This document shows, piece after piece, positions 6,651-46,470 of a DNA stretch of 64,000 bases. A model generated the notes under the pieces. The model was not told the origin of the DNA. It did no database searches and saw only the letters and a program-made list of their open reading frames with translations. The position numbers and the translations under genes were made by a program. The stretch lies in NCBI GenBank assembly GCA_050747525.1, contig JBOGOC010000110.1:17303-81302 (forward strand). The letters are read 5' to 3'. The stretch's first letter is position 1. Every line of letters begins with the position of its first letter. This DNA comes from Candidatus Polarisedimenticolia bacterium. Lineage in GTDB: Bacteria; Acidobacteriota; Polarisedimenticolia; JACPZX01; DASXTC01.

Positions 6651-6688
6651 CAGCAAGCAAGCGGGATCTCGGAATGTTTAGGAGGTGG

Positions 6689-8527
6689 ATGGACATGCGA
6701 TGCTTTCTTATCTGCTCAGTGACCCTCGCGATCGCGTTCGGCCAGCCAATGTTCGCGCAGGGCGCTCCAGCGCTGCTCTCGTATCAGGGGCAGCTCACGA
6801 ACGCCGTCGGCGCCCCCATCACGAGTCCGACGCCGGTGCGTTTCACCCTGCTGTGGGGCGGCACGGCGAACGAGATCCCGTCCACCGGCAAGCCGGTGTA
6901 CCAGGAGGACGTCACCGTCGCACCCGACGGGGAAGGGGTGTTCCATCACCTGATCGGTGCCGGAACGCCCACCTCCGGGTGCGACGAGAACCGGGACGGC
7001 ACCGCGAACGAGCCGTGCGTCCTGACGCCTTCCGACTTTTCCGACTCGGTCACTGCGGTGTACCTCGAACTACGTGTGGATCCCGGTGGCACGAATAACG
7101 TTCTGGTGCCACGGCAGCGGACAGCAAGCGTGGGCTATGCGCTGGAAGCGGATACTCTCGATGGTCAGCATGCCACTGGGTTGGCCGACACTCTCGATTC
7201 CGCCTACCACCGCGGCGGCGCCGGGGCGGGCCGCACCATTGTCGCGGACTCGGGCGCTGTGAGCATCGCCGGCTCGGACGGTCTGACCGTGAACGGCAGC
7301 GTCGGAATCGGCACCACTACGCCCGCCAGCAAGCTACAGGTGTCGAGCGGAGCAGGTACAACGGAACTACGCATCACGAATACGGCTGCTCCAGTAGATG
7401 GTGTCGTGCGTACGGGTCTGCCCGGTGGCATCGCCAGCATGCAACTCGGCACGCTAACGTTGCATGACCTTGCCCTTGCGGCTGGCAACGCTACGCGGGT
7501 GACGATTAACGCAAGTTCCGGCAACGTCGGAATCGGCACTGCGACGCCGGGTGAAAAGCTTACCGTTGCGGGCACCATCCGCTCGACGAGCGGCGGGTAC
7601 AGATTCCCGGACGGTACAGTCCAAGGCTCGGCGGCCTCGCCCATCAATGGCATTCGTACACCACTTCAAATTGCGCTGTTGCGTTGGTACGAGTCCAACC
7701 AGGGGCCAGCAAGGTTCAGTTTTCCGGGTGGCATGTACGGAGGAAGCTCGGTCGCCTTCGACGGAGACCACATGTGGGTGGTTCTTGACCTCTTCAACAG
7801 GGTGCTCAAGTTGCGGGCCAGCGATGGGGCGCAGGTCGGCAACTTTGCGACCGGAGCCGGGGCGACCGCCGCGTCCTTTGATGGGGCCAACATCTGGGTG
7901 GCCAACTCTGACGCCGACAGCGTGACCAAGTTGCGAGCCAGCGATGGGGCATCACTCGGCACGTTCGCGGTCGGCGATGATCCGCGGGCCGTGACCTTCG
8001 ACGGTGCAAACGTCTGGGTGGGAAACTGGGCCAGCGACTCCTTGACCAAGCTTCGTGCCAGCGATGGAGTATCCCTCGGTACGTTCGCGGTCGGTGACGG
8101 CCCGGAGGGTCTATGCTTCGACGGGGCGAACATCTGGGTGACGAACTTCAATAGCGACAACGTGACGAAGATACGGGCCAGTGACGGATCGTTGCTGGGC
8201 ACATTCGGCGTCGGAAACGGTCCGCGGGGATTGGCCTTCGATGGCGCCAACATCTGGATCGCGAACTTTTTCGGTAGTGTAACGAAGCTACGTGCCAGCG
8301 ACGGAGCGCTGCTGGGAACCTTTCCGGCTGGCAGCAATCCGGCGGCCGTCGCTTTTGATGGTGCGAACATCTGGGTGGCCAACCAATCCAGCAACGTTGT
8401 AACCAAGCTGCAAGCGAGCGACGGAGCGCCGCTGGGAACCTTTCCGGCTGGGGAACTACCACAGGCGATCGCCTTCGATGGAGCCAACTTTTGGGTCGTC
8501 GGCTGGTATTACGTGTCGAAGCTGTAA
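6689..8527 (+). CDS. Secreted protein: N-terminal tail-collar-associated domain, tail-fibre-like G-rich repeats, then a 6-bladed NHL/YVTN-like beta-propeller
   Basis: AGGAGG at 6680-6685 followed by ATGs at 6689 and 6695. Signal peptide MDMRCFLICSVTLAIAFGQPMFAQG. N-domain LLSYQGQLTNAVGAPITSP is homologous to the N-termini of the tail-collar proteins at 44420 and 45384. Repeats SGNVGIGTATPGEKLTVAG. Six repeats LRASDGxxLGTFxVGxxPxxxxFDGANIWVxN. Confidence 0.7.
   Translation: MDMRCFLICSVTLAIAFGQPMFAQGAPALLSYQGQLTNAVGAPITSPTPVRFTLLWGGTANEIPSTGKPVYQEDVTVAPDGEGVFHHLIGAGTPTSGCDENRDGTANEPCVLTPSDFSDSVTAVYLELRVDPGGTNNVLVPRQRTASVGYALEADTLDGQHATGLADTLDSAYHRGGAGAGRTIVADSGAVSIAGSDGLTVNGSVGIGTTTPASKLQVSSGAGTTELRITNTAAPVDGVVRTGLPGGIASMQLGTLTLHDLALAAGNATRVTINASSGNVGIGTATPGEKLTVAGTIRSTSGGYRFPDGTVQGSAASPINGIRTPLQIALLRWYESNQGPARFSFPGGMYGGSSVAFDGDHMWVVLDLFNRVLKLRASDGAQVGNFATGAGATAASFDGANIWVANSDADSVTKLRASDGASLGTFAVGDDPRAVTFDGANVWVGNWASDSLTKLRASDGVSLGTFAVGDGPEGLCFDGANIWVTNFNSDNVTKIRASDGSLLGTFGVGNGPRGLAFDGANIWIANFFGSVTKLRASDGALLGTFPAGSNPAAVAFDGANIWVANQSSNVVTKLQASDGAPLGTFPAGELPQAIAFDGANFWVVGWYYVSKL
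7756..8515 (+). repeat. In-gene tandem DNA repeat, ~126-bp period, 6 copies, ~80% identity (encodes the NHL-type blades)
   Basis: Repeated units gtgaccaagttgcgagccagcgatggg...ttcgacgg.gcaaacatctgggtgg.caac are seen directly in the sequence. Confidence 0.7.
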
Positions 8528-9285: not shown

Positions 9286-12200
9286 ATGCATGCGTTCCGA
9301 GCTGCAAGGGTGGTGAAAAGGCTGTTCTGGTCTGGCATCGCCTTTTCTATTGTCATCTCCATCACCTCGTGGACCAGCCCGGCACCTGGACGCGACGGCT
9401 CCGAGCGCCGGCCGCTCCCCACCGCGGGCGCCGACACCGAACATCCGGATGACGCTCTGACGGCCGAGGTGCGGTTCCTCGAGAAGGGCAGACGACAGCT
9501 CTACCCGCGCCCCGAGCCGACCTGGTGGCCGGTCAGCAACGCGGGGGGATTGAAGCCCTACGGTCACGTCCCCGCGAGCGACCTCGACTCCCCCTACACG
9601 CTGATCCTCCCCAACGGGAAGGGCTCCATTGACACACGGAAGCGGAGCTACCGCCACGATCTGCCGGCTGTCCTGCGTGGCGGCTCAGGGAAAGGCCACC
9701 GGCCGGGGCGCGGTCTCTACTACCTCGTCCAGTTCAGGCCGGAAGCGGCCGCCGGCAAGGTCTCCCTCAGCCTCCATGAGGACCTGAGGCGTCTGGGCGC
9801 CGAACCGATCGAGTACGTTCCGCACAACGGGTGGCTGGTGCGCATGGCAGGCGAGCAGGAGGCGGCGGGACTGGGGAAGGCGGGCATCTTCCAGTTCGTG
9901 AGTCCCTTCGAGCCGGCCGACAAGATCCACCCAGACACCGGACGCAAACCTCTTTTGAATCCGGAGCGTGCCAGCTCCGATCTCTTCGAAGTCATCGTCC
10001 GCGTGATGCCCGCCGAGGATGCGGAGGAAGTGGCCGCCACCGTGCGACGCGCGGGTGGTGAGGTCCTGCGGCTCGACCGCGACCCGCGCGGGAACACACT
10101 CATCTCGGCACGGCTGCGCAACAGCAGGCTGCTGGAGCTACTGGCGGACCCAGGTGTGATGGGACTCTGGGAATCGCCGGAGTACGTGCAGTTGGATCTG
10201 GCGCCGGCGGCCCAGATGGAGGTCGGTCGCATCCTGGATCCGCGCGATTTCGGCGACTTCATCCTGCCGTTCCGGCAGGCCGGCATCGATGGCGGCGGCA
10301 CCTATATCGGTCCCCCGGTCGACTTCACCATGCCCGGCGTCCCGGGAGCGCCGATCCCCTTCAGCTCGGCACTGGGCTTCTACGCAGGTCCGCCGCAGTT
10401 TCTCGGGGTGGCGGACAATGGCCTGACGCTGGACAGCCCGGCCTTCGCCCATGACAACTCGAACCCATGCCTCGCCCCGGGGGCCTGCGTCGACGGCGGG
10501 GGGTTCGCGGGCCTCGCAAATGTTGGGGTGTTTCATCGGAGAATCGAGGCTTACACCGAGGGTGACGACTTCGACCCGGGGGCCTCCGGCGACTTCCTCA
10601 CATGCGACGCGATCGGGTCGGGGGGGCGCACGCACGGAACCATTGTGACCGCCGCGGCTGCGGGCAACCCGAGCGGAGGCCTGTTCGGCCTGGGCCGATT
10701 CTACGATGACGTGGACGCGATCGGGCAGCACAGGGTCTTCTTCAACGACTCGCGCGAGACGGACCTGCCACTGGACGGACAGGCCCGCGGGGCGAGAGTC
10801 ATTTTCCAGGACATCGCGGTGACGCCGCCGGCTTCGCCACCGGCTTGTGCCGCGAACTTCCAGTCCGACGTGGACGCGGGTGCCCTTCCTTCCGATCGGC
10901 TCGAGGACATGGCGTACCGCTGCGACCTCTTCGGACCAGGATGCCCCGGCCCGCTCGACCCCCGGGGTGCGAAGGTGACGCTGTTCGCCTTCGGCAATCC
11001 GGTCAACTTCGACGATGCCGCCGGCAACGGCAACGGCGTCTATGGCGTGGGGGCCGACACGGTGGACGCGTTCCTCTTCCTGAACCGCAGGATTACGCAC
11101 GTCCAGGCCGTGGGCAACGACGGCGCCGATCCGGATGACGGCTCCGATATCGACCCGTTCGTCCCGGCGCTGGCCCCCGGAAGCATCCAGATCAACAGCC
11201 TGGCCACGGGGAAGAACGTGGTGACCGTGGGGGCCAACCACACCGACAGCATCGATCCGCTCGGCATGGGATTCGGCGCGGACCCATCCGAGTTCATCGC
11301 CAACTTCAGCAGCAAGGGGCCGGCGACCTTCGCCTCCGGACGCGGCGCCCCGCTGGTGGTGGCGCCTGGCTTCGACGTGGGCCAGGGGCTCAAAGGGCGG
11401 CGCTCCGACGACTACTTCATCTCTGCGGCGACGGTCCTGTCGCGCGACAACGGCAACGACATGCTCGGGGCGGACGAGGTGGAGAACTTCGTCGTCGAAG
11501 GGGCCGCGGGGACCTCGATCTCCGCGGGCCGCGTGGCTGGAGCGGCGCTGCTGATCCGCGACTACTTCGCCAAGGGGTTCTACCCGACCGGCGCGGCCAC
11601 TGCAGCGGACATAGTCCCCGACATCTCCGGGATGCTGGTGAAGGCGGTGCTGGTCAACAGCACCGATTTCTCCTCGCGCGGCCCTCTGATCGAGTCGTGC
11701 GAAGGACGCGGGCCGCTGATGTGTCCATCGGAGCAGGGCTACGGCAAGGTCGAGCTGGCCAATACCCTTCCGTTGCAGAACTACCGCGCGGAGCGGCGGC
11801 CCCCCTCGCCGACGAACGTGGCTCCGGTCACCAACGTCCCGCAGGCGCTGCTGGTCGCCGACGAGTATTTCGACGGCGGGATGCGCGGCACAGGGCCCGG
11901 CGGCAGCACGACCGGCATCGCCGTGGTTCCGGTCGGGGGGTCGGTGTCGTTCGACTTCTTCCGGCGCCACGGCAACGACCAGCTCAGAGTGAGCCTGGCC
12001 TGGTATGACGCCGTCGGAGAGCTGCTCGCGAACGACCTCAACCTGGAGGTCACCAGCGGCGACTACCAGACCTCGCTCGGGGGGGCTGGCATCTGCGGAC
12101 CGGTGGGCGGTGGCATACCCGCCGTCTGCGGCGATTGCACGATTGCCGCCAACTACCCGGGGGAGGCGCTCTATTTCGACCCCACGGGGGTGAACCCCTA

Positions 12201-18543: not shown

Positions 18544-18685
18544 CTGTGACGGTTCTGTGACGGAACGCCCGCCTAAGCCACCCAACTCCGGCCTAAACCG
18601 CCTCACCTAAGTCGTTGCTCTACTTGACCGGCTCGTCTGGCGTGGTGTCCGGCTTCGCGTTCGATTCCCACACGCTTCCGCCAGG
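18544..18685 (+). repeat. Dispersed ~160-bp repeat element, copy A
   Basis: ctgtgacggttctgtgacggaacgcc...cccaactccggcctaaac...cctaagtcgttgctctacttgaccggctcgtctggcgtggtgtccgg...cgttcgattcccacacgcttccgccagg shares 85-90% identity with the copies at 21340, 28537 and 46386. Confidence 0.75.
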
Positions 18686-21339: not shown

Positions 21340-21500
21340 CTGTGCCGGTTCTGTGACGGAACTCCAGCCGAACCCACCCAACTCCAGCCTAAACGACCGG
21401 GCCTAAGTCGTTGCTCTACTTGATCGGCTCGTCTGGCAGGATGTCCGGGATCGCCTTCGATTCCCACACGCTTCCGCCAGGGCTCCCTGCAGCATCAGGC
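21340..21500 (+). repeat. Dispersed ~160-bp repeat element, copy B
   Basis: ctgtgccggttctgtgacggaactccagccgaacccacccaactccagcctaaac...ttcgattcccacacgcttccgccagggctccctgcagcatcaggc. It is preceded by the hairpin gtgaacttcatgatgcagaagttcac. It is in direct orientation with copies A and C. Confidence 0.75.
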
Positions 21501-21614
21501 GTCTTCTGGCAGTCAGTTCCCCTGCTGTGGGCGGCCATCCTCCCACCGACGCCGTGATAGCGTCGACTTGGCGATTGTTTCCAGAGGAGGATAGCCGATG
21601 CTCTAAAGGGCGGA

Positions 21615-24041
21615 CTACCGCAACGACCAAACTTCGATGGCGCCCCCGGAGACGTCTATCATGGGGCCGGTCGTGGACCCTGGGGGTGGCACAGAAATAT
21701 CGATTCTGCCAATCGTTGCAGTGCTTCCATCGGAGTAGCGCACTCTGAACTCGTAGCTCACTTCCTTCAGCAGCTCGTGCCCGCGCCACGTCGCTCGTGG
21801 ATAGCTCTCCGCGCTGGCTGTGAGCACGATCGTGGCACCTTCATTGCTCGCGAGATCCCGGAGCTCGCGCAGGCGTGCTTCGGCTGTGCGGCTTTGGAAA
21901 ACCTGGTTCACTTCACGGGGGGCATACATGATTCCTTCACGAGCCTCGTCACCGAAACCAGGGCCCCAGAGGTGTGCTCTCTCGTAGTCGGGAAGTCCGA
22001 TTTCCCGGGAGGTTGGCAGATCCACGTTGAAGTTCGGTACTCGGGGATCGCGCCGATCCCCTAGAGAAGGCCCCAGTTCTCCTTCGATTCTGAATTTGAT
22101 GGTCCCATCCGGATCCCGATGGGCCCAGATCTCCTTGATGAGACCTGTTCCGGCAGTATCCCCTGATAGGGCCACATTCGTGCTGCGTAGCCTGGGCCCT
22201 CTCCCGGAGGCTGCTGGATCGGGCGAGGCCTGTTCTCGACCGGAGGCAGCCCGCTGGCGCCGTGCCTCGGATCTGCCCCGTGGTGGTCGCTGCGTGGGCT
22301 CGCGCTCGCTCCGCCTTCCGGAGACCATCGTGTCGGCAGCTCTCGCTGACGGACCGTGCGTCGACGGATCCACCGCACCCGCGATCGGGCGCGCTTGCCG
22401 CGTCTCGGCTGCGCCTGACGCCGGGCGGTCGGTGTTCCCCTGGCTTGCTGGACGACGTGGTCGTCGCTCCCGGGAGCCGGCAGTCATCGGGGATTCCTGC
22501 CTCTCCGCCGTGCGCGACCCGGTGGAGGGCAAAGCCTCGGAAGGTGCCGCTGGCCGAGCCCCCAGCCTCGGCTCGTCCCCGACGCCAGCGGGGCGCTGGA
22601 GTCGCGCCTCCCCGGTGCCGGGAATGGGCCGATCGACCGCCCGCTCTGCCGTACGCAGGCCCTGAAGGCTCGGTCGCGGGGTTCGGCCCCTCGCTGCTCG
22701 CAGAAGAACGCGCTGAGTGAATTCAGTGCGCAGGAATCTGCGGGCGACGGGTCCCAGCATCGCGGGGAGAAGTATCGATGCCGCCAGAAGACCGACATCG
22801 GCGGTGATGTCCACCATCTCGCCGCTCGCGGGCCCCTCCGCGACACGAAGACCCTCATCGACAAGCGCGGTGCGATTCATGAGATTCCGTTGCGTCTCCG
22901 CGGACGCTGCGAATCCATACTCGACTCCGGTCTGAATCCCCAGCATCACGGCCCCGACCACTCCCGCCACGAGAGGCGATGCGAGCCCTCCTGAGACAGC
23001 CGTGACGACGAGCCCGGCTGCAAGCACCAGCACCCTGACATTCTCCAGAGCCCCCCATCTCTCTGTGAGTTCCGGGAAAAGCTCCTCAGCGAGCTCCTTC
23101 AGCGGTTCGGACTCCGCGAAGGCCGCTCCTACGTCATTTCGGAACGTAACGTCCGCCAACCTCAGCACGGGGCGCAGGTTCTCCCAGTTCTCCTGGCCTC
23201 TCAGAATCTCGTCGAGTCTCCCCCGGAAAGCAGCCACGCCTGCTCGCAGGAACACCACGATTTCATTGACGAGGCTACGGAGGTACCGGTTCCTCAGCTC
23301 GGTCGGGGCTCTCAAGACATCGTAGAGCGCCTGAGGGGTTGCGAATCTTCGGACCAGGACCAGGATTGGATGGCCCCCGAGCTCCTCGTCGAGGAGCAGG
23401 GAACGCAACTCGAAGTCATTGTTGGTCTTGACGAGGGCCACGCGTGCCAGGATGAAGTCCTGGTCCCGAGACTCTCGTGGCGACTCTCCCCAGCGGTACC
23501 AGATGAGATGGCGGACAGGGGGTTGAGCCGGCCCATAGGCCTGGGTCCCTGCATCTCGTTCGGGCGGACCGCCAGGCGGCAGCGCTGGGGTGGGTGGCAA
23601 CGCCGGCGGAGGCAACGCCGATTCCGGCACTGCGTACGGCGCGCTCGAGGTGAACACCAGCCAGCTCGCAAGGCAGCGCGCAAGGCTCCCCAGCTCCTGT
23701 TCGGCGGGCGGAGTGGCCTCACCCTCTCTTCGCCGTCCGCGGTAGCGCCAGTTGATGTGGCCCCAGAGCGAGGTCATCAAGCGAAGCTGAAACTCGCCCA
23801 TCTCGACAGCCGACGCTTGAAGCCATGCCTTGAATAGGGCGCGGTCCTCTTCGTGCCGAGGGCTTAGAAACGCCAGTCCCCCTGGCCCCGCGTCAGGGTA
23901 TGTCCGCCGAAACTGATCGAAGGCCCTCGGGATCGTACCGTGAGGATCCGAGGACACACCGCCTCGCGCCCTCCACAAGAGACGATAGGAACGGTCAGCG
24001 TGGTGTAGCCTCCGCAGGACTTCTCTGGGCTCGTCTGACAT
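21615..24041 (-). CDS. Hypothetical 808-aa protein: N-terminal domain, two TM helices, a disordered R/P-rich linker and a C-terminal ~190-aa toxin-like domain
   Basis: Long ORF with coding-like composition. TM segments VLVLAAGLVVTAVSGGLASPLVAGVVGAVMLGI and LLAASILLPAMLG. Low-complexity linker RQESPMTAGSRERRPRRPASQGNTDRP... C-terminal block LPDYERAHLWGPGFGDEAREGIMYAPREVNQVF...IVLTASAESYPRATWRGHELLKEVSYEFRV. No confident family assignment. Confidence 0.55.
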   Translation of the reverse strand: MSDEPREVLRRLHHADRSYRLLWRARGGVSSDPHGTIPRAFDQFRRTYPDAGPGGLAFLSPRHEEDRALFKAWLQASAVEMGEFQLRLMTSLWGHINWRYRGRRREGEATPPAEQELGSLARCLASWLVFTSSAPYAVPESALPPPALPPTPALPPGGPPERDAGTQAYGPAQPPVRHLIWYRWGESPRESRDQDFILARVALVKTNNDFELRSLLLDEELGGHPILVLVRRFATPQALYDVLRAPTELRNRYLRSLVNEIVVFLRAGVAAFRGRLDEILRGQENWENLRPVLRLADVTFRNDVGAAFAESEPLKELAEELFPELTERWGALENVRVLVLAAGLVVTAVSGGLASPLVAGVVGAVMLGIQTGVEYGFAASAETQRNLMNRTALVDEGLRVAEGPASGEMVDITADVGLLAASILLPAMLGPVARRFLRTEFTQRVLLRAARGRTPRPSLQGLRTAERAVDRPIPGTGEARLQRPAGVGDEPRLGARPAAPSEALPSTGSRTAERQESPMTAGSRERRPRRPASQGNTDRPASGAAETRQARPIAGAVDPSTHGPSARAADTMVSGRRSEREPTQRPPRGRSEARRQRAASGREQASPDPAASGRGPRLRSTNVALSGDTAGTGLIKEIWAHRDPDGTIKFRIEGELGPSLGDRRDPRVPNFNVDLPTSREIGLPDYERAHLWGPGFGDEAREGIMYAPREVNQVFQSRTAEARLRELRDLASNEGATIVLTASAESYPRATWRGHELLKEVSYEFRVRYSDGSTATIGRIDISVPPPGSTTGPMIDVSGGAIEVWSLR

Positions 24042-24103
24042 GGGCGGCTCCCGGCAGCGCCGGCCTCCTCTCGACTTCCTCCATGTGATCCAGCGCTCGA
24101 GGG

Positions 24104-26974
24104 TTACGCATCGTCGTCCGTTGGGTCCACTGCGGGAAAGTCCCCCAGAGCGCCCTGCGTAACAACCGTGACCCGTTCGACATCGGGATCGCCCAGCTTG
24201 TCGATGTCGATCCGTCGCTGACGACGCCTGTTCTCGATCTGCTTGGCTTCCAGATCCGCCGCCGCCGAGAGGACATCGAGATAGCGGTGCAATGACTTGA
24301 AAGGCTCAAGGGAGCTTGCCGGGTCGACCGCCCTGGAGAGCAGGACGTTGTTCGTATCGAGGAGAAACCGCCTCGTGTGTTGCTTGCGCAGCACGTAGTC
24401 GGGTAGAAGGTCCCGCACGAGCTTGCGGGTCGACGCGTCGAGATCGCTCCACTGGCCAGGCCTCGGGTCCAGCACCCCGAACGCTGTCGCAACCTCAGGG
24501 AAGAACTCTTCGAACTCACTCAACATCTCCGCGCTGAAGAACTCCGACTCCTGCTCGGGCGAGAGTGGTTCCTGCCTGAACCGAATCGCTCTCAGCTCCG
24601 GATCTTCGAGGAGTGGATCGGCGAATACGTTCACGGCGAACCGATCGCCGTGCTGGAGCGCCTCACCCGCAGCCGGGACGAGCCTGACGCGCAATCCATG
24701 GAACTCGAGCTCGCCGCCGGACGAGCTCATATCCGTCGCGGCGACAACCGTATAGACGCTCCGACCGTCGACGTCATCGGCCTCCAGCAGACTGATTTCG
24801 CATCGTGACGGAGAGGGAGGCGTGCTGACGAAGTCGATCTGATACTCGCCGGTCCCGAGCCGGTTCGGGGAGATATCCACCTCGACGGTGACGCGCCCCG
24901 GGGAACCGCCCAGGAGTTCGCCGCTGGCCCTGTGCCTGAGGTACGGAAGGCGCAGATAGCCCACCGCATCGTCGATATCCGGGAACCGACCGTCCTGCTT
25001 CAGATAAAAGATGGCGTAGTTGCCTGCAAACCCGATCGGGCCGGCGGGGTTGATCAGATTCGCGAGGCTCGCCGTGGGCCGTAGCTCCGGGCGCCACACC
25101 CCCTCGAGAACCCCCTCCGCCGTGTAGGATCCGACGAGCGACCACTCCGTCGGGACAGTCACCGAGGCGTACCGAAGGAGCCGTTGCTGCGGGTCTTCCG
25201 ATGCCCAGATCGCTCTGCAGTAGTGCAGGATGTTCTCGAAGATGTGCCACTGCAGCCGACGAACGCTGCGAGAATACTGCTCCCTCTCGGCCCTGCGGAC
25301 ACGCTCGCGCTCGACCTCTCGCTCGTAGCTCGCCTGCGGATTAGAGTAGACGTCTGGTGCCGTTCCTTCGAGACTGTCGAACTGCGGCAACCCACGGCTG
25401 ACGATGCCACCCATGAGATTGGCAATAGCCGGGTCCTTGTCTGCGACCTCCTCCGCTTCGGAACGGGGCTCCTGAGCGCGAATCACCTCCAAGTCCTTGC
25501 GGTATGACTCGTCGAGTAATGCGCGAGCGAGGATTGTATCATGCCCTCTGATCCATCGGCCGGTTATCTCGCTTGGGAGTGGGATTCTCTCGGCGACGAA
25601 CACACAAGCATTCGCCTCGGCTAGCTCCGTGTGAATCTCGTACTGTCTCTGGAGGCGGCTGTAGATGTAAGTCACCGCGACCTCGTCGTTCGGATTACTG
25701 ATCTCCGACTCGCGGGAGAGCTCCGTCGTCTCCTCGACCTCCGTTGAAACGACGATCTTGGTTTCTTGCCGCATCCTCGAGGCGGTCTTCGCCATGGTCT
25801 CGTTGAGGGTCGATTTGGTATCCCGGGAGGATGATGCGGACTCGCCTCCCATCCCGGCGGATAGACTCGCGGAGCCGAAACCGAAGGAGGCCGAGGCCGA
25901 GGCCTCCGCGTTCCACTTGAAGGTATCGGACGCCTCGCTCACTATCTCCTGAGAATCCTTCGTCGCTGTCGACGACTCCGTCGCGGTCTCGATGGCCGTC
26001 ACCGCTTCCATCTGGCGGGTTGCCTTCGTGCGATGTATCGCCTTGATACTGACCTTCTCGCTCTGTTTCGGACCGAGTGGCAGGGTTCTGAGGATCTCTC
26101 CTTCCTGGTAGCCGAGCGGCACCCAAGTCTGTCGATAGACGAGTTGCAGGCCCAGGTTGACCGTATCGTGGGCGTATGGGACGAAGGGGTAGGAGCCGGA
26201 AAGCAGGTTGCTCTCGGGTGCAGGGACGGGCGCTTCAGACGCCCTGCGATTGGCCTCTTCCTGCAAGGCGTTCCTGATTTCCGGTCTGTGTTCCAGCCAC
26301 AAGCCGCCATCGCTGAGATCCCGAATCACGTATTCGTGAATGACACGCGCCGGATCCAGTCCTGCTGCGGTGATGTCTGCGACGTATTCCGGAATCCCTC
26401 GAAGCCTTGGGATCTCCTCGAGAAGTATGCGCCTCACATGCGAGTCGGCGAACGACCAGTACCATTCGGGTTCATGCAATCCACGCCAGTGCGCGTAAAG
26501 CCCGCCTTCACCCTCGACGAGCCCCGATCGAATTCCGACCACCACCATCTCAGCCACCGAGTCGGCGATTCCGCTTCCCTCCGAGACGGTTCCCTCGTAG
26601 ACAAGGAAGATCCGGCTGGGCAGGTCGTCGAAGACCTGACTCACCACGAGACTGAATCCAGCGGCCGTCTCCGAGAGCGTGGCGATTCCTCCACTCGACG
26701 GCAAACCGCCGAAGCCGAGCGGATATCCTCGCTCGTCGGGCCCAATCCCAGCAAAGGTCTCGCCGGCCCTCCCAACATCCCTCACTCGTTCGGAGATCCC
26801 GAGGGCATAGCCGAGGGTAGGCGGTGCCATGAAGAGGTACTGCGAGAAGTCGTGGATCGCGGTTTCTTTGATCTCGGAAGGCGGGCTCTTCAGGACGTTC
26901 TCGAGGGGCGCCGCCTCGGCGAGCAGGCGGGAGAGCCGCTCGCTTACCTGCTCCAAATCCAGTGACACCGACAT
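24104..26974 (-). CDS. Hypothetical 956-aa protein with no recognisable motif, co-oriented between the Toprim gene and the 808-aa gene
   Basis: Long ORF. 30-nt gap to the downstream gene start at 24041 and 40-nt gap from the upstream gene. Internal S/A/G-rich segment ASASASFGFGSASLSAGMGGESASSS. No Walker A/B or catalytic motifs seen. Confidence 0.55.
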   Translation of the reverse strand: MSVSLDLEQVSERLSRLLAEAAPLENVLKSPPSEIKETAIHDFSQYLFMAPPTLGYALGISERVRDVGRAGETFAGIGPDERGYPLGFGGLPSSGGIATLSETAAGFSLVVSQVFDDLPSRIFLVYEGTVSEGSGIADSVAEMVVVGIRSGLVEGEGGLYAHWRGLHEPEWYWSFADSHVRRILLEEIPRLRGIPEYVADITAAGLDPARVIHEYVIRDLSDGGLWLEHRPEIRNALQEEANRRASEAPVPAPESNLLSGSYPFVPYAHDTVNLGLQLVYRQTWVPLGYQEGEILRTLPLGPKQSEKVSIKAIHRTKATRQMEAVTAIETATESSTATKDSQEIVSEASDTFKWNAEASASASFGFGSASLSAGMGGESASSSRDTKSTLNETMAKTASRMRQETKIVVSTEVEETTELSRESEISNPNDEVAVTYIYSRLQRQYEIHTELAEANACVFVAERIPLPSEITGRWIRGHDTILARALLDESYRKDLEVIRAQEPRSEAEEVADKDPAIANLMGGIVSRGLPQFDSLEGTAPDVYSNPQASYEREVERERVRRAEREQYSRSVRRLQWHIFENILHYCRAIWASEDPQQRLLRYASVTVPTEWSLVGSYTAEGVLEGVWRPELRPTASLANLINPAGPIGFAGNYAIFYLKQDGRFPDIDDAVGYLRLPYLRHRASGELLGGSPGRVTVEVDISPNRLGTGEYQIDFVSTPPSPSRCEISLLEADDVDGRSVYTVVAATDMSSSGGELEFHGLRVRLVPAAGEALQHGDRFAVNVFADPLLEDPELRAIRFRQEPLSPEQESEFFSAEMLSEFEEFFPEVATAFGVLDPRPGQWSDLDASTRKLVRDLLPDYVLRKQHTRRFLLDTNNVLLSRAVDPASSLEPFKSLHRYLDVLSAAADLEAKQIENRRRQRRIDIDKLGDPDVERVTVVTQGALGDFPAVDPTDDDA

Positions 26975-27013
26975 GATGTCGTCCTCCTCGACTGCGGCTC
27001 AAGGCGATTCTTG

Positions 27014-28090
27014 CTAGGGCATCAAGGGATCTCCGATCGACTCATAGAGCCTTCCAGCGACATCCATCAGCCGGCGTCGCTGCTCTAACGACAGGGGCTC
27101 ATCGCGCAGAGCGCGAAGGAGGTGGGGCTTGAGTCGTTCTGCGAGCCGGCGCACGCCGGCGAGGCGTATCGCCGTGGCAGGTCGTGCCAGCCGGCCGCCA
27201 TGGGAACGCTCGACAGGTGTCCGGAGGTGTGCCAGCCGGACCGCTGTGCGGGGAAGCCTCAGGCGCGGAAACGGAGTGGCGTACGACGGTCGCCATTCGG
27301 CAGCCTGGCTCAACATTCCTTTCGCATTCGAAGGAGACATGATTGTGGCCATCGGCATGGGCGATCTCCCGACGATTCGCGTCGAGGTCGCACCCATCCG
27401 GGCGAGCTGCGCGGCAAGCTGCTGCATGTGTGCCCACCCGTTGGCGTCGGGAAGGGGCCAGAGGACGATCGAAGTTGAATCGAGAACCGGCTCCAGCGCT
27501 GTCCTCGGCGGGAGAAGGAAGGGCCCGCAGAGCGTCCCCACGGCCTGGAGACCCTGGGCTCGCAGAGCATCGGCAGCCCGCACCCCCTCCGTGATGACTA
27601 CCGGACCCCCCTGGCGCGACAAATCCTCGTATCCGCACAGTGGCAGCAGCAGGGATGACAGATCGTAGTGTCTGATGCCAGTCTCGTCCTCGAAGAACAC
27701 CTCGTGACGTATTCTTCCGCTCGGATCGCGGCGGATTGTGCGGACGAGTCGACCGCGCCGGCCGTCGAGGAGCCGCAGGGCGATCGAGGTGTTCTGATCA
27801 GGTGAGAGCTCCTCGCCCGACCGGCTCATCGGCGATCGCCACGGATCCAGCCTGATGGCCATCCATTCCGGCGAAGAGACGGACACGAACGGCATCCGAT
27901 GAACGAGTGTGGGCAGCAAAAACCCGACCAGAGCCGGATCGCCGAGGAGTCTTCGGGATACTCTCGATGCGCGACCGGCCTCCACAAGCAATCGGCGGGT
28001 CTCCCGCGACACGGAGGCGATCCCGCTCGCGAAGTCGTGCTTGCCGGGAGCGGTCCTGGAACCATCCTTGGGCTTCGACTGTCGGGGCAT
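27014..28090 (-). CDS. Toprim-domain protein (DnaG-primase/OLD-nuclease-like Toprim fold), 358 aa
   Basis: PVVITEGVRAADALRAQGLQAVGT and IVLWPLPDANGWAH match the Toprim E...G and DxD(G) acidic motifs. It is the first gene of a three-gene minus-strand unit. Confidence 0.55.
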   Translation of the reverse strand: MPRQSKPKDGSRTAPGKHDFASGIASVSRETRRLLVEAGRASRVSRRLLGDPALVGFLLPTLVHRMPFVSVSSPEWMAIRLDPWRSPMSRSGEELSPDQNTSIALRLLDGRRGRLVRTIRRDPSGRIRHEVFFEDETGIRHYDLSSLLLPLCGYEDLSRQGGPVVITEGVRAADALRAQGLQAVGTLCGPFLLPPRTALEPVLDSTSIVLWPLPDANGWAHMQQLAAQLARMGATSTRIVGRSPMPMATIMSPSNAKGMLSQAAEWRPSYATPFPRLRLPRTAVRLAHLRTPVERSHGGRLARPATAIRLAGVRRLAERLKPHLLRALRDEPLSLEQRRRLMDVAGRLYESIGDPLMP

Positions 28091-28200
28091 CTGATCCCTC
28101 CGGCGCCTGGGAATTCAAACTGGTTCTTTTCAACGATTCTACATGCGAAAGGGCGCATTCCGTCAACCTCGGCCCCGATCGAGCGGCTGGCGACCAGGCA

Positions 28201-28536
28201 GTGCGGCTGGCCGTGGTCTCGCGTCTCGCGTGGATCCTCCGCAAGCGGAGGGCGTTCGTGGAGCAGGCTCGCCAGTCGCAACGAGAGACAGTCACGGGCG
28301 AGAGTCAATACTTCCAGGGGCGCCGTTACCTGCCCTACGTGATTGAAGTGGCCAAATCACCTTCCGTCCGTCTGGCCGGCCACAACACGATGGAACTGCG
28401 GGTTCGCCCGGGCAGCGACCGACAGGCCCGCGAGGCCGTCCTTCAGGGATGGTATCGACGTGGCCTGCGCGAGCAGGCAACGACGCTTCTTGCCAAGTGG
28501 GGGCCGAAGATCGGCGTGACTGTTTCTGAGGTGGGA
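28201..28536 (+). pseudogene. Truncated DUF45/YgjP-like (WLM-type metal-dependent hydrolase) gene fragment, interrupted by repeat copy C
   Basis: Translation ...RRYLPYVIEVAKSPSVRLAGHNTMELRVRPGSDRQAREAVLQGWYRRGLREQATTLLAKWGPKIGVTVSEV matches the YgjP family middle region (..WYRRqA....v..wa.rlGl....vrvr). The expected RWGSC/HExxH part is replaced by the repeat sequence beginning ctgtgccggttctgtga at 28537. The N-terminus overlaps the upstream minus-strand gene. Confidence 0.45.
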
Positions 28537-28697
28537 CTGTGCCGGTTCTGTGATGGAACACCAGCCGAACCCACCCCACTCCAGCCCAAATTTCCTCGCC
28601 TAAGTCGTTGCTCTATTTGACCGACTCGTCTGGCGTGGTGTCCGGAATCGCGTTCGATTCCCACACGCTTCCGCCAGGGCTCCCTGCAGCATCAGGC
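28537..28697 (+). repeat. Dispersed ~160-bp repeat element, copy C, followed by a second partial start motif (ctgtgccggttctg) at ~28722
   Basis: ctgtgccggttctgtgatggaacaccagccgaacccaccccactccagcccaaat...cctaagtcgttgctctatttgaccgactcgtctggcgtggtgtccggaatcgcgttcgattcccacacgcttccgccagggctccctgcagcatcaggc. Confidence 0.75.
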
Positions 28698-29057
28698 TTT
28701 CCCGAGTGCTCCACTCCCCCGCTGTGCCGGTTCTGAGGGCTTCGGAGCCTCACCGGGGAACCGTAAGACCCTTCGGCCTGACGAGGCAGCAGCCAGGTGC
28801 CTCTGCGTGCGCCTGCGGCACGCCCGCGGATCATAGGCTTCGCGACTTCACGCACGGCGCGTGAGGGGGGGGTCGTGAATTCGGTTCGGGCTGCGCACAG
28901 TTCGGAGTAGAATCGCCTACCGGCTATCGCCGAGCGGGCAAGGGGAGGATGTCCCGAGGCCCCCTGCGACGGCGTCCGACCCTCAACAGCATCCTCGGCC
29001 GCAACCGCAGGGACGGGCTGCGCTTCACCATCTGCCCGATGTGCAGAGGAGGCACCC

Positions 29058-32000
29058 GTGTCCCATCCCGCGCCAGGTCGTCCAGCAGCAGCCCGTTCAC
29101 TCGGACTCATCCTTCTCGCAATCGGTGCCCTCCTCGGCGGAAATGCGAGCGCCGGAGACCAGGCAGCCGGCTCCCGGCCCGAGTATTTCCTCAAGTTCGC
29201 CGGCTCGCTGCCTGAGTCCGACGGCAGTCTCTTTTCGGGAAGCCGCACGTTCGTCTTCGAGCTCTTCGGGCGCGAGCGCGGAGAGGCGCCGATCTGGTCC
29301 GAGCAGCAGGAGATCGAGGTCCGTGATGGGCGGTACTCGACCCTGCTGGGAGTCAGCGCGCCCCTCACGGCGCCTCCGGGAGACGGGTACGCGCTCGCGG
29401 TCCGTGTCGAGGGAGTGGTCGAGCCGCTCGAGGTGCACGAGATCTCGATCGCGGTGCCCGCCGGCAGGGACGGGGTCGCTCGAACCGCGGGCACCCCGAT
29501 CTACAGGCTCCTCCCCTCGACGACGGGCCGGCGCGGCCGAGGCCGGATGGCGGCGATGGCCACCGCAGCCGCGGTGTCCGAGCCGGCGGACCAGGCCATG
29601 GCCCAGGCCGGCGCTGCCGCCTCGGGGCCCAGACTCCTCTTCGTCGGTGTGGAAGTGGAGGAGACATCGGGCAACACGGACGGTTCTCTGGAGCCCGGCG
29701 AAACGGTCAACCTCAAGGTCAAGCTCTACAACGACGGCAATGAGCTGGCCTCGTCCATCTTCGGGACTCTCGACTATCTCGGGACGAATCCCGATGTGAC
29801 GATCCTCGACAAGACCGCTTCGTGGCCGAACCTGGCGGCACGCGGAGCCCCGGCGCTGACCGACTCCCCCCACTTCCAGGTCCAGCTCGCAGGCACTCTG
29901 GCCTGCGGGACGGTGCTGCCATTCCGCGTGGAGGTGACGACAGGAACGGGGGGGATCTTCGATCTCGACTTCTCGCTCAAGGCCGGCCAGAGACTCGACT
30001 ATGACATGCTCCACGACGCGATCCGCCGATTCAACGAGCAGGAGGCGAACCTCTGGGGGGCCGATCCGGGGGACAAGCTCGGCTCGAGCGTGGCGTGGGG
30101 GGACATCAACGGAGACGGGCGCGCGGATCTGATTTTGGGGGCCAGCGAAGGCGACTCTGTAGGAAACGCCCGCGGCTTCGCTGGGGAGGTCTACCTCATT
30201 TACGGGAGGTCCAGCCAGTGGACCGAAACGGATCTCCTCAGCCCGGGGACCGGCGTGGCGCGATTCTGGGGAGCGGATCCAACTGATGTCCTCGGGATCT
30301 CTGTCGCCAGCGGTGACCTGAACGGCGACGGCTTCGACGACCTCATTTTGGGAGCAGAACTCGCCGACGGTCAGGGAAACGCGCGCGCTAACGCTGGTGA
30401 GGTCTACCTCATCTACGGGAGGTCCAGCGAGTGGACCGACACGGATCTCCTCTCCCCGGCGCCCGGCGTGGCGCGATTCTGGGGGGCGGACTCCCTGGAT
30501 TTGCTGGGATCTTCGGTGGCCAGCGGTGACGTGAACGGCGACGGGTTCGACGACCTCATTTTGGGGGCCAAAGAAAGCGACTCTTCAGGAAACGCCCGCA
30601 ACGCCGCTGGGGAGGTCTACCTCATCTACGGGAGGTCCACCCAGTGGATCGACACGAATCTCCTCACCCCCCCGTCCGGCGTGGCGCGATTCTGGGGCGC
30701 GGAACCCTTTGACACGTTGGGCTCCAGTGTGGCCAGCGGAGACGTGAACGGCGACGGGTTCGACGACCTCATTCTGGGGGCGGTCTTCGGCGACTCCGTG
30801 GGGAACACGCGTTTCAACGCTGGGGAGGTCTATGTCATCTACGGGAGGTCCAGCCAGTGGACCGACACGGATCTCCTCACCCCTCCGTCCGGCGTGGCGC
30901 GATTCTGGGGGGTGGATGAAGCAGATCGCCTCGGGATCTCTGTCACCAGCGGTGACGTGGACGGCGACGGCTTCGACGACCTGATCCTGGGAGCGGACGA
31001 CGGCGACTCCGTGGGGAACACGCGCTTCCTCGCTGGGGAGGTCTACCTCATTTACGGGAGGTCCAGCCAATGGACCGACACGGATCTCCTCAGCCCGGCG
31101 ACGGGCGTGGCGCGATTCTGGGGGGCGGATAATGCCGATCACCTCGGGTTCTCTGTCACCAGCGGTGACGTGGACGGCGACGGCTTCGACGACCTGATCC
31201 TGGGAGCGTTTAACAGCTCATCCGCAGGGAGCACGCGCCTCAGTGCCGGAGCGGTTTACCTAATCTACGGGAGGTCCAGCCCGTGGACCGACACGGATCT
31301 GCTCACCCCGGCGCCCGACGTGTCGCGATTCTGGGGGGCGGATACATTCGATCACCTCGGGTTCTCTGTCGGCAGCGGGGATGTGGACGGCGACGGCTTC
31401 GACGACGTGATCCTGGGAGCGGTTTCCGGCGCTTCGGCGGGAAACGCGCGCCCCGATGCCGGAGAAGTGTACCTCTGGTACGGGAAGCCCGTGGACACGC
31501 ACTACGCCCGCTCCGACACCTACTCGTTCATCGACGCCAGCGTCGGGGCCGGTCTTCCTGCCCTTGCCTGCGATGACTGCTCCACGACAGTGCCGATAGG
31601 ATTCTCGTTTCCCTTCCATGGCGAGGAGTATTCGACCATCCACGTGTCGAGCAATGGCCTGATCTCCTTCGCGCCCATCAGCGACCTCGCCTCCGCGAAC
31701 CCGATCTGCATCCCGGCGCGCAATCCCTCGAATCTCCTGGTCGCCCCCTTCTGGGACGATCTGAACCCGGCCGCCGGAGGAGCAGGCAGCGGCGTCTTCA
31801 CCCTCCTCCAGGGGACCGCCCCGAACCGCCGGCTCACGATCGAATGGAAGGATGTCCCGCACTATCCGGCGACGGGCGGAGCGACGTTCGAGGTGACGCT
31901 CTTCGAGTCGTCGGGACAGATCCTCGTCCAGTACGGCGACACGATTTTCGGAAACAGCGCCTTCGACGGCGGCGCCGCTGCGGTCGCGGGGCTCGAGAAC

Positions 32001-43514: not shown

Positions 43515-44357
43515 ATGAAGCTCTTCGCTCGACTGAACCGGGACGCCGCCGCGGCACTGATCGGCGGCGCCCTGCTCCTCGCCTCGCAGACGCCCGCCTG
43601 GGCGGCGGCGCTCAGCCTGCCGCCGGACGCCGGCGGCCGAGGCGGCGTGACGGTGAGCGTTCCTCTGCGAGTGGACGACGCGGCGGGGATCCGCTCGGCC
43701 GATGTCCGCGTGGAGTTCTCCCCCGCGATCGCCGAAGCGGTCGCCGTCTCACTCACCCCCCTGACCTCGAGCTTCCAGATCGCCGTGAACCTGAACACAC
43801 CAGGCGTGGTGATCGTCTCGATGTTCGGGACGACGCCTCTCTCGGGCACCGGCGATCTCCTCCGGATCGACTTCCAGGTCGAGGGGGGGCTGGGGCAGTC
43901 CACGTCCCTGGACCTGGTCCTCGGCGAGCTCAACGAAGGGGCCATCGCCTCCACGCTCCAGGATGGGATCTTCACGGTGCTCCCCACCTATCTGCTCTCA
44001 ATGAAGAGCGTCAACTCGGGAGGAGGGGAGGCGGCCTCGGCGTCCTGGCGCGCCGGTGGCTCGATGGGACAGGAGTCGGTCGTGGAGGCCTCGGCGGCCT
44101 TCGGCCACGTGGTGCAGTCGGGCTTCTGGAGCTTCGCCGGGACCGGCGTGGTTCCCGTGGTGCTGTCCGTGGGCGCGACCGTCCTGAGCTGGTCGGGGAA
44201 CGATCCGCCTTACTCCATCTACCGGTCCGGCGACTGCAGTGACGTCGGGTCGTCCCTGCTCACGGTGACTCCTGCCAGCAGCTTCTCCGACCCCGCCGTT
44301 CCTGCTCCGGGGCAGGTCTTCTGCTATCAGGTCGAGCCCGCGCCGCCGGGCATGTGA
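43515..44357 (+). CDS. Secreted cohesin-like domain protein
   Basis: AGGAGG 9 nt before ATG 43515. Signal peptide MKLFARLNRDAAAALIGGALLLASQTPAWAAA. The segment VSVPLRVDDAAGIRSADVRVEFSPAIAEAVAV...LLRIDFQV resembles the C-terminal domain of the upstream subtilase. Confidence 0.6.
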   Translation: MKLFARLNRDAAAALIGGALLLASQTPAWAAALSLPPDAGGRGGVTVSVPLRVDDAAGIRSADVRVEFSPAIAEAVAVSLTPLTSSFQIAVNLNTPGVVIVSMFGTTPLSGTGDLLRIDFQVEGGLGQSTSLDLVLGELNEGAIASTLQDGIFTVLPTYLLSMKSVNSGGGEAASASWRAGGSMGQESVVEASAAFGHVVQSGFWSFAGTGVVPVVLSVGATVLSWSGNDPPYSIYRSGDCSDVGSSLLTVTPASSFSDPAVPAPGQVFCYQVEPAPPGM

Positions 44358-44419
44358 GGTCGATGGGAATGCACGGCCACGATTCCAGTCTGGTGAAGGT
44401 CGACAACAGGAGGTCGCAC

Positions 44420-45331
44420 ATGAAGAAGACTCTGGGAACCGGAACCGCCCTGCTCCTCGCCTGCGTGATTCCGGCAGCCCTGGGCGCCCATGCCCTCGCG
44501 GCAATCCCGCGGACGATCAACTATCAGGGACGGCTTACCACCAACGATGCGCTGCCGTCCCCGGTCAATGGAAACCTGCCGATGCAGTTCAGCCTCTGGG
44601 ATGACGTGGTGGGCGGCACGCTCCTCTGGTCCGAGAGCTGGCCCTCGGTCCCCGTGAGCGAAGGGATCTTCAACCTGGTGCTCGGATCGCTGACGCCGCT
44701 CCCCTCATCTCTCTTCCAGTCTGGCGACCGCCGCTGGCTCGAGCTGAGCGTCAACGGAGAGGTGCTTTCGCCTCGGCAGGAGCTCACTTCCACCGGGTGG
44801 GCCTTCCAGGCGGAGGGGACGAACACACTGGGCGGCCTGCCGGCCTCGAGCTGGCAGCGGCGCGTCACGGGGACCTGCCCCTCCGGATCGAGCATCCAGG
44901 CCGTCGGGGATCAGGGGACCGTGACCTGCGAGGTCGACGACACGGGGGCCGGCGTTCCCTCGGGAGCGATCATGTACTTCAACAATTCCACGTGCCCTCC
45001 CGGGTGGAGCCCCCTCGTCGCGGCGCAGGGACGGTACCTGGTGGGCGTTGTCCCCGGCGGGACGCTGCTGGGAACCCCTACAGGAGTGCATTCCGCCCTG
45101 TTCGACCGGGAGAACCGCCCGGTAGGTGCCCACTCCCACGGCATCACCGACCCGGGGCACAGGCATGGCTACGAAGCGGCGGTCCCGACGTCGACCGGCT
45201 CCGGCGACTCGCAGGCCGGGTACGAACACCGCAACACGGACCTCGCGGTCACGAACGTCACCATCAACAGCACCGGCCCGGCCGGGACGAACGCCCCCTA
45301 CATCCAGCTCCTCGTCTGCCAGAAGAACTGA
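44420..45331 (+). CDS. Secreted phage tail-collar domain protein (MdpB-like), paralog 1
   Basis: AGGAGG before ATG. Signal peptide MKKTLGTGTALLLACVIPAALGAHALA. N-domain IPRTINYQGRLTTNDALPSPVNGNLPMQFSLWDD. C-terminal tail-collar signature GAIMYFNNSTCPPGWSPL...LFDRENRPVG...GTNAPYIQLLVCQKN. Confidence 0.75.
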   Translation: MKKTLGTGTALLLACVIPAALGAHALAAIPRTINYQGRLTTNDALPSPVNGNLPMQFSLWDDVVGGTLLWSESWPSVPVSEGIFNLVLGSLTPLPSSLFQSGDRRWLELSVNGEVLSPRQELTSTGWAFQAEGTNTLGGLPASSWQRRVTGTCPSGSSIQAVGDQGTVTCEVDDTGAGVPSGAIMYFNNSTCPPGWSPLVAAQGRYLVGVVPGGTLLGTPTGVHSALFDRENRPVGAHSHGITDPGHRHGYEAAVPTSTGSGDSQAGYEHRNTDLAVTNVTINSTGPAGTNAPYIQLLVCQKN

Positions 45332-45383
45332 GACGGTCAAGGGGATGGCGAACGCGGATCATGGTCGAGCACAGGAGGAGGTC

Positions 45384-46277
45384 ATGAGAGTTCTGTGTGG
45401 AGTTCTGCTGGCGATTTCGGCGGCTCTGTGCGGGCAGGCGTTCGCGGCCGTCCCTTCCACGATTCACTACCAGGGTCGCCTCCTGCTGAACGATGCGATC
45501 CCTTCTCCCTTCAATGGGACGGTCCCGATCCAGGCGGTCCTCTGGGACGACGCGACGGCCGGCACGCAGCTCTGGACCGAGACGTGGGCCTCGGTCACCG
45601 TAACTGACGGCGTCTTCCACCTGGTGCTCGGCTCTTTGTCCCCAATTCCGGCTCTCGTCTTTCAGTCGACCGAGCCGGTGTGGCTGGAGATGATCGTCGA
45701 CGGCGAGGTGATTTCTCCGCGCCGCGAGCTCACTTCTTCCATGTGGTCCTTCAGGGCCGAAGCGTCCGACATGCTGGGCGGGCTCGCCTCCTCGTCATGG
45801 CAGCTCCGCGTCTCCGGCGCCTGTCCGCCGGGCTCGAGCATCCAGACCGTGGGGAGCGGCGGCGCGGTGACCTGCGAGACGGACGACACCGGGGCGCCCG
45901 TCCCCGCCGGCGCCGTGACCTTCGTCAACCTGCCGGCCTGTCCGCCCGGATGGAGCCTTCTGGCCGCCGGGCAGGGTCACTACGTGGTCGGCCTGTCGCC
46001 GGGCGGCACGCTGTTGGGCACGCCGATGGGGACCTACAGTCCCCTGACCGACCGGGAGAACCGGCCCGTGGGAGGCCACACTCACACCAAAAACGATCCA
46101 GGGCACAGGCATGGCTACGAAGCGGCCGTCCCGACGTCGACCTCGGGCGGCTCATCGAAGGCCGGGTACCAGCATCGCGATACTGATCTCGCCGTCACCG
46201 GGATCTCGGTCAACAGCACGGGTCCGGTCGGGACCAACGCCCCCTACGTCCAGCTCCTCCTTTGCCAGAAGGACTGA
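45384..46277 (+). CDS. Secreted phage tail-collar domain protein, paralog 2 (tandem duplicate)
   Basis: AGGAGGAGG before ATG 45384. MRVLCGVLLAISAALCGQAFA. The protein has the same architecture as 44420..45331, with an estimated ~65% identity. Confidence 0.75.
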   Translation: MRVLCGVLLAISAALCGQAFAAVPSTIHYQGRLLLNDAIPSPFNGTVPIQAVLWDDATAGTQLWTETWASVTVTDGVFHLVLGSLSPIPALVFQSTEPVWLEMIVDGEVISPRRELTSSMWSFRAEASDMLGGLASSSWQLRVSGACPPGSSIQTVGSGGAVTCETDDTGAPVPAGAVTFVNLPACPPGWSLLAAGQGHYVVGLSPGGTLLGTPMGTYSPLTDRENRPVGGHTHTKNDPGHRHGYEAAVPTSTSGGSSKAGYQHRDTDLAVTGISVNSTGPVGTNAPYVQLLLCQKD

Positions 46278-46385: not shown

Positions 46386-46470
46386 CTGTGCCTGTTCTGT
46401 GGCGGAACGCCCGCCGAACCCACCCAACTCAGGCCTAAACGTTCGCGCCCAAGCCGTTGCACTCTGATTC
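46386..46470 (+). repeat. Dispersed repeat element, copy D (5' portion only, more diverged)
   Basis: ctgtgcctgttctgtggcggaacgcccgccgaacccacccaactcaggcctaaacgttcgcgcccaagccgttgc. Confidence 0.6.

Follow-up and report, generated by a model that had tools for sequence, protein, structure and literature searches.

The window analysed here is a stretch of 64,000 nucleotides (64 kb) from contig JBOGOC010000110.1 of a Candidatus Polarisedimenticolia bacterium (Acidobacteriota). On its plus strand lies the relic of a YgjP-like gene (PF01863, formerly DUF45), which is broken at both ends and whose right-hand break falls at the beginning of a 185-nt repeat, copy C. The repeat belongs to a family with four direct copies in the window, all on the plus strand, which start at 18544 (A), 21340 (B), 28537 (C) and 46386 (D). 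The relic forms the right-hand extremity of an islet of about 7.2 kb (approximately 21.5-28.5 kb), inside the interval between copies B and C, which carries a predicted toxin module of three genes. All coordinates are positions in the 64-kb window, and P and L numbers designate homologous proteins and database contigs, respectively.

The ygjP relic and its two breakpoints

The relic (28171-28533, +) comprises about 121 internal codons, free of in-frame stops, of a PF01863 gene of about 240 amino acids (aa), a family also annotated as 'M48 family metallopeptidase', and the plus strand frame across 28153-28536 is a YgjP-family fragment. The translation of the open reading frame (ORF) at 28198-28620 (+) matches the Pfam model PF01863 (YgjP-like) at profile positions 27-136 of 207 with E=8.1e-12 and 46 bits, for a cut-off of 26, and the longer ORF at 27907-28620 (+) matches positions 19-136 of 207; both ORFs reach 46-47 bits, with E-values from 4e-12 to 8e-12. 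A database search returns 49 relatives; among those of full length, P0002 (205 aa, 75% identity) and P0003 (201 aa, 73% identity) come closest. A hidden Markov model (HMM) derived from 24 full-length homologs recognises the relic with E=5.5e-52, at positions 17-137 of 216 only. The assignment of this fragment to the DUF45/YgjP family, made in the initial annotation from the letters alone, is confirmed by both models, and the alignment with intact homologs that it proposed gives 73-75% identity at the protein level and 78% at the DNA level, with homology that stops at 28533.

The relic tracks the family in the protein alignment up to the residues KIGVTVSEV and then diverges, and every intact homolog goes on after the equivalent point with R-I-K-x-M-K-T-x-W-G-S-C and H-E-M-V-H. 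No match to HMM positions 138-216 is found in the six frames of the 64 kb, with which tblastn agrees, and the catalytic half of ygjP, which contains the WGSC and HExxH motifs, is absent from all six frames. The relic passes the PF01863 threshold, yet the complete domain with these two motifs is not there. At the DNA level, the relic is 78% identical to the intact gene of L005 over 28183-28533 (the left edge is arguably at 28171), and this homology ends abruptly at exactly 28533, after TCTGAGGTG. The repeat begins as (A)CTGTGCC at 28535/28537, so that the gene break and the start of copy C coincide within 1-3 nt; the joint bases GGA (28534-28536) are assignable to neither side, and their A is common to copies B and D. 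The truncation at repeat C and the loss of the WGSC/HExxH half, as initially described, are thus confirmed.

No frame of the window contains the missing half, which excludes a frameshift or a sequencing artefact as the source of the truncation. An in-frame continuation, which the initial annotation had foreseen as the outcome of corrected sequencing errors, does not exist in any frame of the window, and two independent assemblies agree with the sequence: the contig of an NCBI metagenome-assembled genome (MAG; GCA_974107545.1, CDBFBP010000146.1) and the Logan unitigs (SRR27067778) match the window with 100% identity, and both this contig and unitig L002, which covers window positions 21471-28677, are 100% identical across the joint of ygjP and repeat C. 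The sequence comes from a MAG and the Logan assembly breaks at repeat copies (L002 and L013), as might be expected if the joint were a chimeric join made by an assembler at a repeat in a metagenome bin. Such an artefact is extremely improbable, however: the de Bruijn unitig L002 runs uninterrupted across 28533-28537, the NCBI contig has the window sequence at the joint, and the runs common to the copies near the repeat start are shorter than 31 nt, so that this start cannot mislead a k=31 graph. The ends of L002 and the left end of L013 are the exact starts of runs of at least 31 nt common to copies, as expected for such a graph. The right end of L013 lies at 21335/21336, 4 nt before repeat B, and no shared 31-mer in the window accounts for it; this stop could reflect a strain variant or an alternative joint in the sampled population.

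The left side of the relic is broken as well. About 37 N-terminal codons (KIDVDGIAVEVVRKEIRNLHVGVYPPGGRV...), which are present upstream in L005 and, frameshifted, in L017, are missing from the relic, which has no usable start codon at the start position of the family. Between the start of a 358-aa gene on the opposite strand (28090) and the relic lies a spacer (28091-28170, GC content 0.525) that has no similarity to the YgjP N-terminus or to the 3’ end of hsdR and thus marks the breakpoint on the left. The initial annotation was therefore correct about the missing N-terminus, since these approximately 37 codons have no counterpart in 28091-28170, but not about its overlap by the 358-aa gene, which starts at 28090 and is clear of the fragment. 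By its sequence, the relic is an internal piece of about 121 of about 240 codons, and it is best described as a pseudogene fragment, a predicted non-functional member of the YgjP-like family.

The database entries of 201-205 aa in the subfamily of the relic appear to be annotated from an internal start, with about 37 more N-terminal codons upstream. These extra codons overlap the hsdR stop in L005 (680-800), and those of L017 (6880-7010) are out of frame with the rest, which is suggestive of a pseudogene or of an indel of 1 nt.

In intact relatives, ygjP most often closes a type I restriction-modification (R-M) or defence operon. In three of the four contexts examined (P0003, P0013 and L005) the gene lies downstream of hsdR, with the operon orders hsdM-hsdS-KwaA-x-hsdR-ygjP for P0003 and hsdM-yhcG-hsdR-ygjP for P0013, and an hsdR-like C-terminus upstream of ygjP in L005. 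The exception, P0015, lies in a transposase-rich patch and adjoins a SNF2-type helicase gene. The position downstream of hsdR is typical of this subfamily, not strictly defining. The relic resembles the YgjP-like accessory proteins of type I R-M systems in its HMM match and its 73-75% identity, and differs from them in that no hsd genes lie nearby and in that its N-terminal strand region and its WGSC/HExxH part are gone; tblastn finds no trace of hsdM, hsdR or yhcG in the 64-kb window. In the P0003 contigs, a KwaA (Kiwa) gene and an unannotated gene of 293 aa are embedded between hsdS and hsdR. A literature search on DUF45/YgjP within R-M systems turned up only papers on DUF450 or irrelevant ones.

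A repeat family with one common edge

Copies A-D have a single sharp 5’ edge, followed by 78-190 nt of rightward similarity, and their left flanks are unrelated. Copy C (28537-28721) is a unit of 185 nt that opens with CTGTGCCGGTTCTGTGATGGAAC from 28537 and starts with two tandem 11-bp units, CTGTGCCGGTT CTGTGATGGAA; about 95-130 nt from this start there is a second conserved block, GGCGTGGTGTCCGGAATCGCGTTCGATTCCCACACGC. Copy A (18544-18685) has 142 nt that are 88% identical to C and lies between convergent genes. Copy B (21340 to about 21529), which brackets the islet on its left, aligns with C over 162 nt at 89.5% identity, and copy D (46386-46463) has only the first 78-80 nt or so in common with the others. 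All copies begin with two tandem 11-bp units of the form CTGTGNCGGWW, and this tandem pattern is confined to the four copies in the window (5 matches vs 0.10 expected). B and C are mutually the closest copies. A simple tree, ((B,C),A,D), accommodates the site patterns, which thus give no evidence either way on mosaicism or gene conversion among the four.

The second partial repeat start that the initial annotation had placed at about 28722 is there, as an exact re-occurrence of the 14 nt CTGTGCCGGTTCTG at 28722-28735 (+), 185 nt after the first one. A scan of the window for this word at up to 2 mismatches gives 6 matches vs 0.64 expected. At the matching distance of 185 nt, copy B has only CTGTG (21525-21529), and its similarity to C continues to that point.

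The family is also found outside the window, in contigs from other organisms. L003, from a Candidatus Polarisedimenticolia MAG, has the same repeat start, about 140 nt of homology and a different left flank; it keeps the first block of about 33 nt and the second block as GGCGTGG..TCCGG..TC.CGTTCGATTC..ACACGC. The soil contigs L007/L009 and L010 have this repeat start as well, again with unrelated left flanks, and the nhmmer scores of the matches in L003, L007/L009 and L010 are 46-60 bits. Across taxa, conservation is limited to the first 55 nt or so. The pattern matches in L004, L006, L008 and L011 are short, and they are within the handful of chance matches that is estimated for a 19-base pattern in large collections.

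Since copies A-D, L003, L007/L009 and L010 all start at one nucleotide and have unrelated left flanks, the repeat end is taken as a place of DNA joining, and because homology starts at the same base in at least seven independent contexts, the break of ygjP at the first repeat base is not a matter of chance. Sequence comparison thus supports the repeat end as a defined DNA joint, 'mobile or recombinogenic' in the words of the initial annotation, and its terminus may be an att-like (attachment site-like) joining site or the end of an element. That part of the earlier claim is sustained by the terminus at the joint, which is common to the family. Mobility of the repeat itself is what we infer and not an observation, because the analysis brought to light no transposase or integrase, no terminal inverted repeats and no identifiable target duplication.

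The two tandem 11-bp units have a layout that would be typical of a head-to-tail site for a recombinase, a transposase or a regulator. If a regulator were concerned, the repeat would be a duplicated regulatory module, in which the 11-bp-phased CTGT pair binds a winged-helix response regulator before a promoter, the sharp 5’ edge is the point where selection stops, and ygjP decayed or was deleted up to it. The 11-bp direct-repeat architecture and the restriction of cross-taxon conservation to the start of the repeat agree with such a module, as does the co-oriented gene for a secreted protein that C, D and L007 each have 200-520 nt downstream. The 11-bp-phased CTGT units would also resemble the Pho box consensus of E. 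coli (CTGTCAT-N4-CTGTCAT). The explanation is nevertheless unlikely. Copies A and B and that of L003 point towards convergent genes, at their 3’ ends, which leaves only about half of the copies with a gene to regulate, and there is no sigma-70-like -10/-35 pair in 27900-29200 around copy C. The 80-190 nt that the window copies share at 80-90% identity point to duplication or transfer, not to convergent conservation of a site, and an edge of selection would leave the bracketing of a foreign islet by the two closest copies unaccounted for.

A very unlikely alternative is a repeat of the REP/REPIN (repetitive extragenic palindrome) kind or an end of the IS200/IS605 type, moved in trans by a Y1 transposase (RAYT/TnpA) encoded elsewhere. 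The repeat is similar to REP/REPIN elements as a short intergenic family with several copies near gene 3’ ends, it lacks inverted repeats at its ends, like members of the IS200/IS605 family, and one copy of its motif stands beside a RAYT gene in Gaiellaceae-like contigs, where an exact 22-mer lies about 105 nt upstream of that gene (L006, L019-L022; Pfam Y1_Tnp E=3.3e-9; JGI name 'REP element-mobilizing transposase RayT'). However, the match in L006 is short (about 23-40 nt), comes from another phylum and is within chance expectation, which is estimated at a few per scan, and the RAYT ortholog in L023 has a degenerate motif only. The repeat motif also consists of direct units and is not a palindrome, with no hairpin, GTAG-type signature or folding signal, its copy number looks low, and the window has neither a RAYT gene nor another Y1 transposase. 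The 22-mer itself, TGTGCCGGTTCTGTGTCGGAAC (195-217 in L006), lies between an arginase-family gene and the RAYT gene, which is syntenic and single-copy in these contigs, and the locus of the 78%-identical ortholog in L023 (about 9880-9990) has it in degenerate form only.

Several other classes were considered for the repeat and rejected. A structured RNA (omega-RNA, bridge RNA, riboswitch or group II intron end) is ruled out by the lack of any Rfam match, either at the gathering threshold or at E<=1, of a fold signal on either strand (z-scores +0.15, -0.83 and +0.13) and of covariation, as the alifold covariation term is about 0. For the block that contains GTTCGATTCC, a tRNA or tmRNA origin is rejected, as ARAGORN finds nothing and the T-stem is unpaired on direct reading. 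The repeat is not a coding repeat or a shared C-terminal extension either: the reading frame open in C meets a TGA in copy A, at the second codon, and a 2-nt indel places conserved blocks 1 and 2 in different frames between C and L003. A miniature inverted-repeat transposable element (MITE) with terminal inverted repeats does not fit, because there are no consistent inverted repeats and the nhmmer profile finds no inverted or extra copies in the window. Viral contigs, plasmids and phages hold no similar DNA except for a chance match of 29 nt.

In L004 (3360-3400), which belongs to the Candidatus Acidoferrales MAG CAWIPD010000009, three tandem 11-bp units are found, CTGTGGCGGAA/TT. This triple CTGTGGCGGWW lies about 105 nt from the 3’ half of a partial tRNA-Met, where a prophage-like region that encodes a tape-measure-like protein of 827 aa comes to its end. 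This arrangement resembles both the edge of the window repeat and the tandem arm-type sites in the attL/attR of tyrosine recombinases, and may be a coincidence.

The islet between copies B and C

Copies B and C bracket 7197 bp in which the GC content at third codon positions (GC3) is 0.70-0.76, vs 0.82-0.87 outside. The islet genes range from 0.70 to 0.76 and the ygjP relic has 0.74, while the flanking genes (3122-aa, 773-aa, FG-GAP and CHAT) have 0.82-0.87.

The first gene of the three-gene module (27014-28090, -) encodes a 358-aa protein with a weak DnaG/Toprim-like stretch at residues 160-240. The Toprim label that the initial annotation gave to it applies to this stretch at most, where the matches are weak (NCBIfam E=1.6e-5, PADLOC 0.002, PHROG DNA primase 0.002), and Pfam finds nothing in the protein. 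No solved structure is related by sequence to the 358-aa protein or to the YgjP subfamily. The second gene (24104-26974, -) encodes a 956-aa protein that has no match in Pfam, NCBIfam, PADLOC or PHROGs. The third (21615-24041, -) encodes an 808-aa protein of polymorphic-toxin type with a C-terminal Ntox4 domain, and the islet ends 85 nt past its stop codon, at repeat B. The same block of three genes recurs in the JGI contig L015 (Ga0491453_0012435, 1276-7332), with 51% identity between the proteins of the first gene, 70% identity in the DNA of the second and a toxin-type gene of about 800 aa as the third; there it adjoins a metallophosphoesterase gene, and neither the relic nor the repeat is present. 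Because it recurs in this unrelated contig without them, the module is considered portable, and the block is a predicted toxin module, as yet uncharacterised.

Downstream of the Ntox4 gene (21531-21614) there is no room for the usual small immunity gene, and the next gene encodes a 773-aa HEAT/PQQ-repeat protein. The immunity gene was either cut off at the repeat joint or lies elsewhere.

Origin of the joint

In the initial annotation, the relic was a resident ygjP gene cut at the insertion point of copy C. Under this explanation, an intact resident gene was split in place by a mobile repeat, or by a larger element that begins with the repeat, and its 3’ half and N-terminus were lost later. 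It would account for a break exactly at the terminal nucleotide of the repeat and for an identical terminus that abuts unrelated DNA in at least seven contexts, and the 14-nt restart at 28722 would be a local rearrangement of the repeat. It is unlikely all the same, as the 64 kb contain no 3’ half of ygjP in any frame and no transposase was found among the scanned ORFs of the window. The relic is broken on the left too, its usual hsd partners are absent, and its GC3 fits the foreign islet and not the resident genes. The window shows no second end of an element and no identifiable target-site duplication, the 3’ target side of ygjP being absent from it; the CTGTG that B and C have again after 185 nt is a part of every copy. 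A split in situ is not what fits the data best, and the dating of the islet insertion relative to ygjP, which was claimed along with it, does not follow from them.

Import of the relic with the islet is favoured because the relic is broken on two sides, stands without its operon, has an islet-like GC3 and lies inside the interval between the two closest copies. In this explanation, to which we give about an even chance, the relic arrived with the toxin islet that B and C bracket and was joined at the repeat terminus, or recombination trimmed the gene. A fragment of a defence island with an already damaged ygjP would have travelled with the toxin module, and the islet would have been joined at the repeat by att-like site-specific recombination or through an element end. 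Alternatively, homologous integration of the Campbell type via a repeat copy may have left B and C as flanking direct repeats, or a later recombination between repeat copies may have trimmed the rest of ygjP. The responsible enzyme would not be encoded among the scanned ORFs of the window.

Some observations weigh against import with the islet. With 17 differences in 162 positions, B and C are not a fresh duplication, and the interval between A and B holds a resident-looking gene with GC3 of 0.82, so not every interval between repeats is foreign. The GC3 argument is based on 121 codons and amounts to about 2 standard errors, and a GC3 of 0.75 is also seen in some other genes of the window (VgrG-like and beta-lactamase-like). 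In addition, Pfam finds no integrase or transposase in the long ORFs that were selected throughout the window as probable genes, tblastn with the RAYT protein finds no Y1 transposase in it, ARAGORN finds no tRNA or tmRNA genes in it, and it has no inverted copies or terminal inverted repeats of the repeat.

Among known mobile systems, the att repeats of genomic islands are similar to the window repeats, which have the same orientation, bracket a foreign islet and share a sharp edge and tandem units of about 11 bp. Direct repeats that bracket a compositionally distinct segment are thus present, and a recombinase and a tRNA/tmRNA target are not. Islands flanked by att sites differ from the window, which has no integrase and no such target, and in which the copies are 10-20% diverged and their left arms unrelated. 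The ends of DDE transposons (Tn7, Mu, Tn402 and IS21 types), which carry multiple subterminal binding sites and 5’-TG termini, were also compared with the repeat. As solo ends they are similar to it, since the repeat has the terminus (C)TGTG with short units at its end and abuts unrelated DNA, once inside a coding sequence; they differ in that the repeat has no inverted partner end, no transposase and no identifiable target-site duplication, and all of its copies are single-ended.

A further and quite improbable idea is that the 185-nt repeat could serve as the site of recombination for a cassette-type or islet-capture system, so far undescribed, of Acidobacteriota-like bacteria. Its recombinase would be encoded elsewhere and would stack unrelated gene blocks, such as the toxin module and secreted repeat proteins, in one orientation, with ygjP as by-catch. 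The repeat is not a classical integron attC, because it starts with CTGTGCC and the R''/R' core sites (RYYYAAC...GTTRRRY) are absent. The intervals between its copies are 2.8-17.8 kb, with no integrase among the scanned ORFs.

The relic itself is a case of routine pseudogene decay in a defence/toxin islet, and the repeat family is uncharacterised and a possible joining site. As a marker, the relic places one breakpoint of a toxin module that was acquired horizontally at a single nucleotide, the constant end of a small repeat family whose members in other soil bacteria have that same end. If this end is a true site of recombination or transposition, it would point to a way of assembling islets that is still uncharacterised, in a phylum that has been little studied; if it is not, the case documents defence-island debris that travels with toxin modules.

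Other features of the window lie to the right of the islet. The secreted protein encoded after repeat C (1355 aa) contains 6-7 tandem FG-GAP units of 213 nt (71 codons) with 71-78% identity, at 30052-31416 (+). Just upstream of repeat D, a direct repeat of 236 nt with 79% identity (45096-45331 and 46042-46277, +) forms the 3’ ends of the adjacent ORFs 44354-45331 and 45126-46277, and is probably a shared C-terminal domain. A VgrG-like spike gene with Phage_GPD and Phage_base_V domains (54741-57158, +) adjoins a sigma-54 activator (57522-59582) and, because these two genes are present, a locus of the contractile injection or type VI secretion system (T6SS) type shares the window with the Ntox4 toxin.

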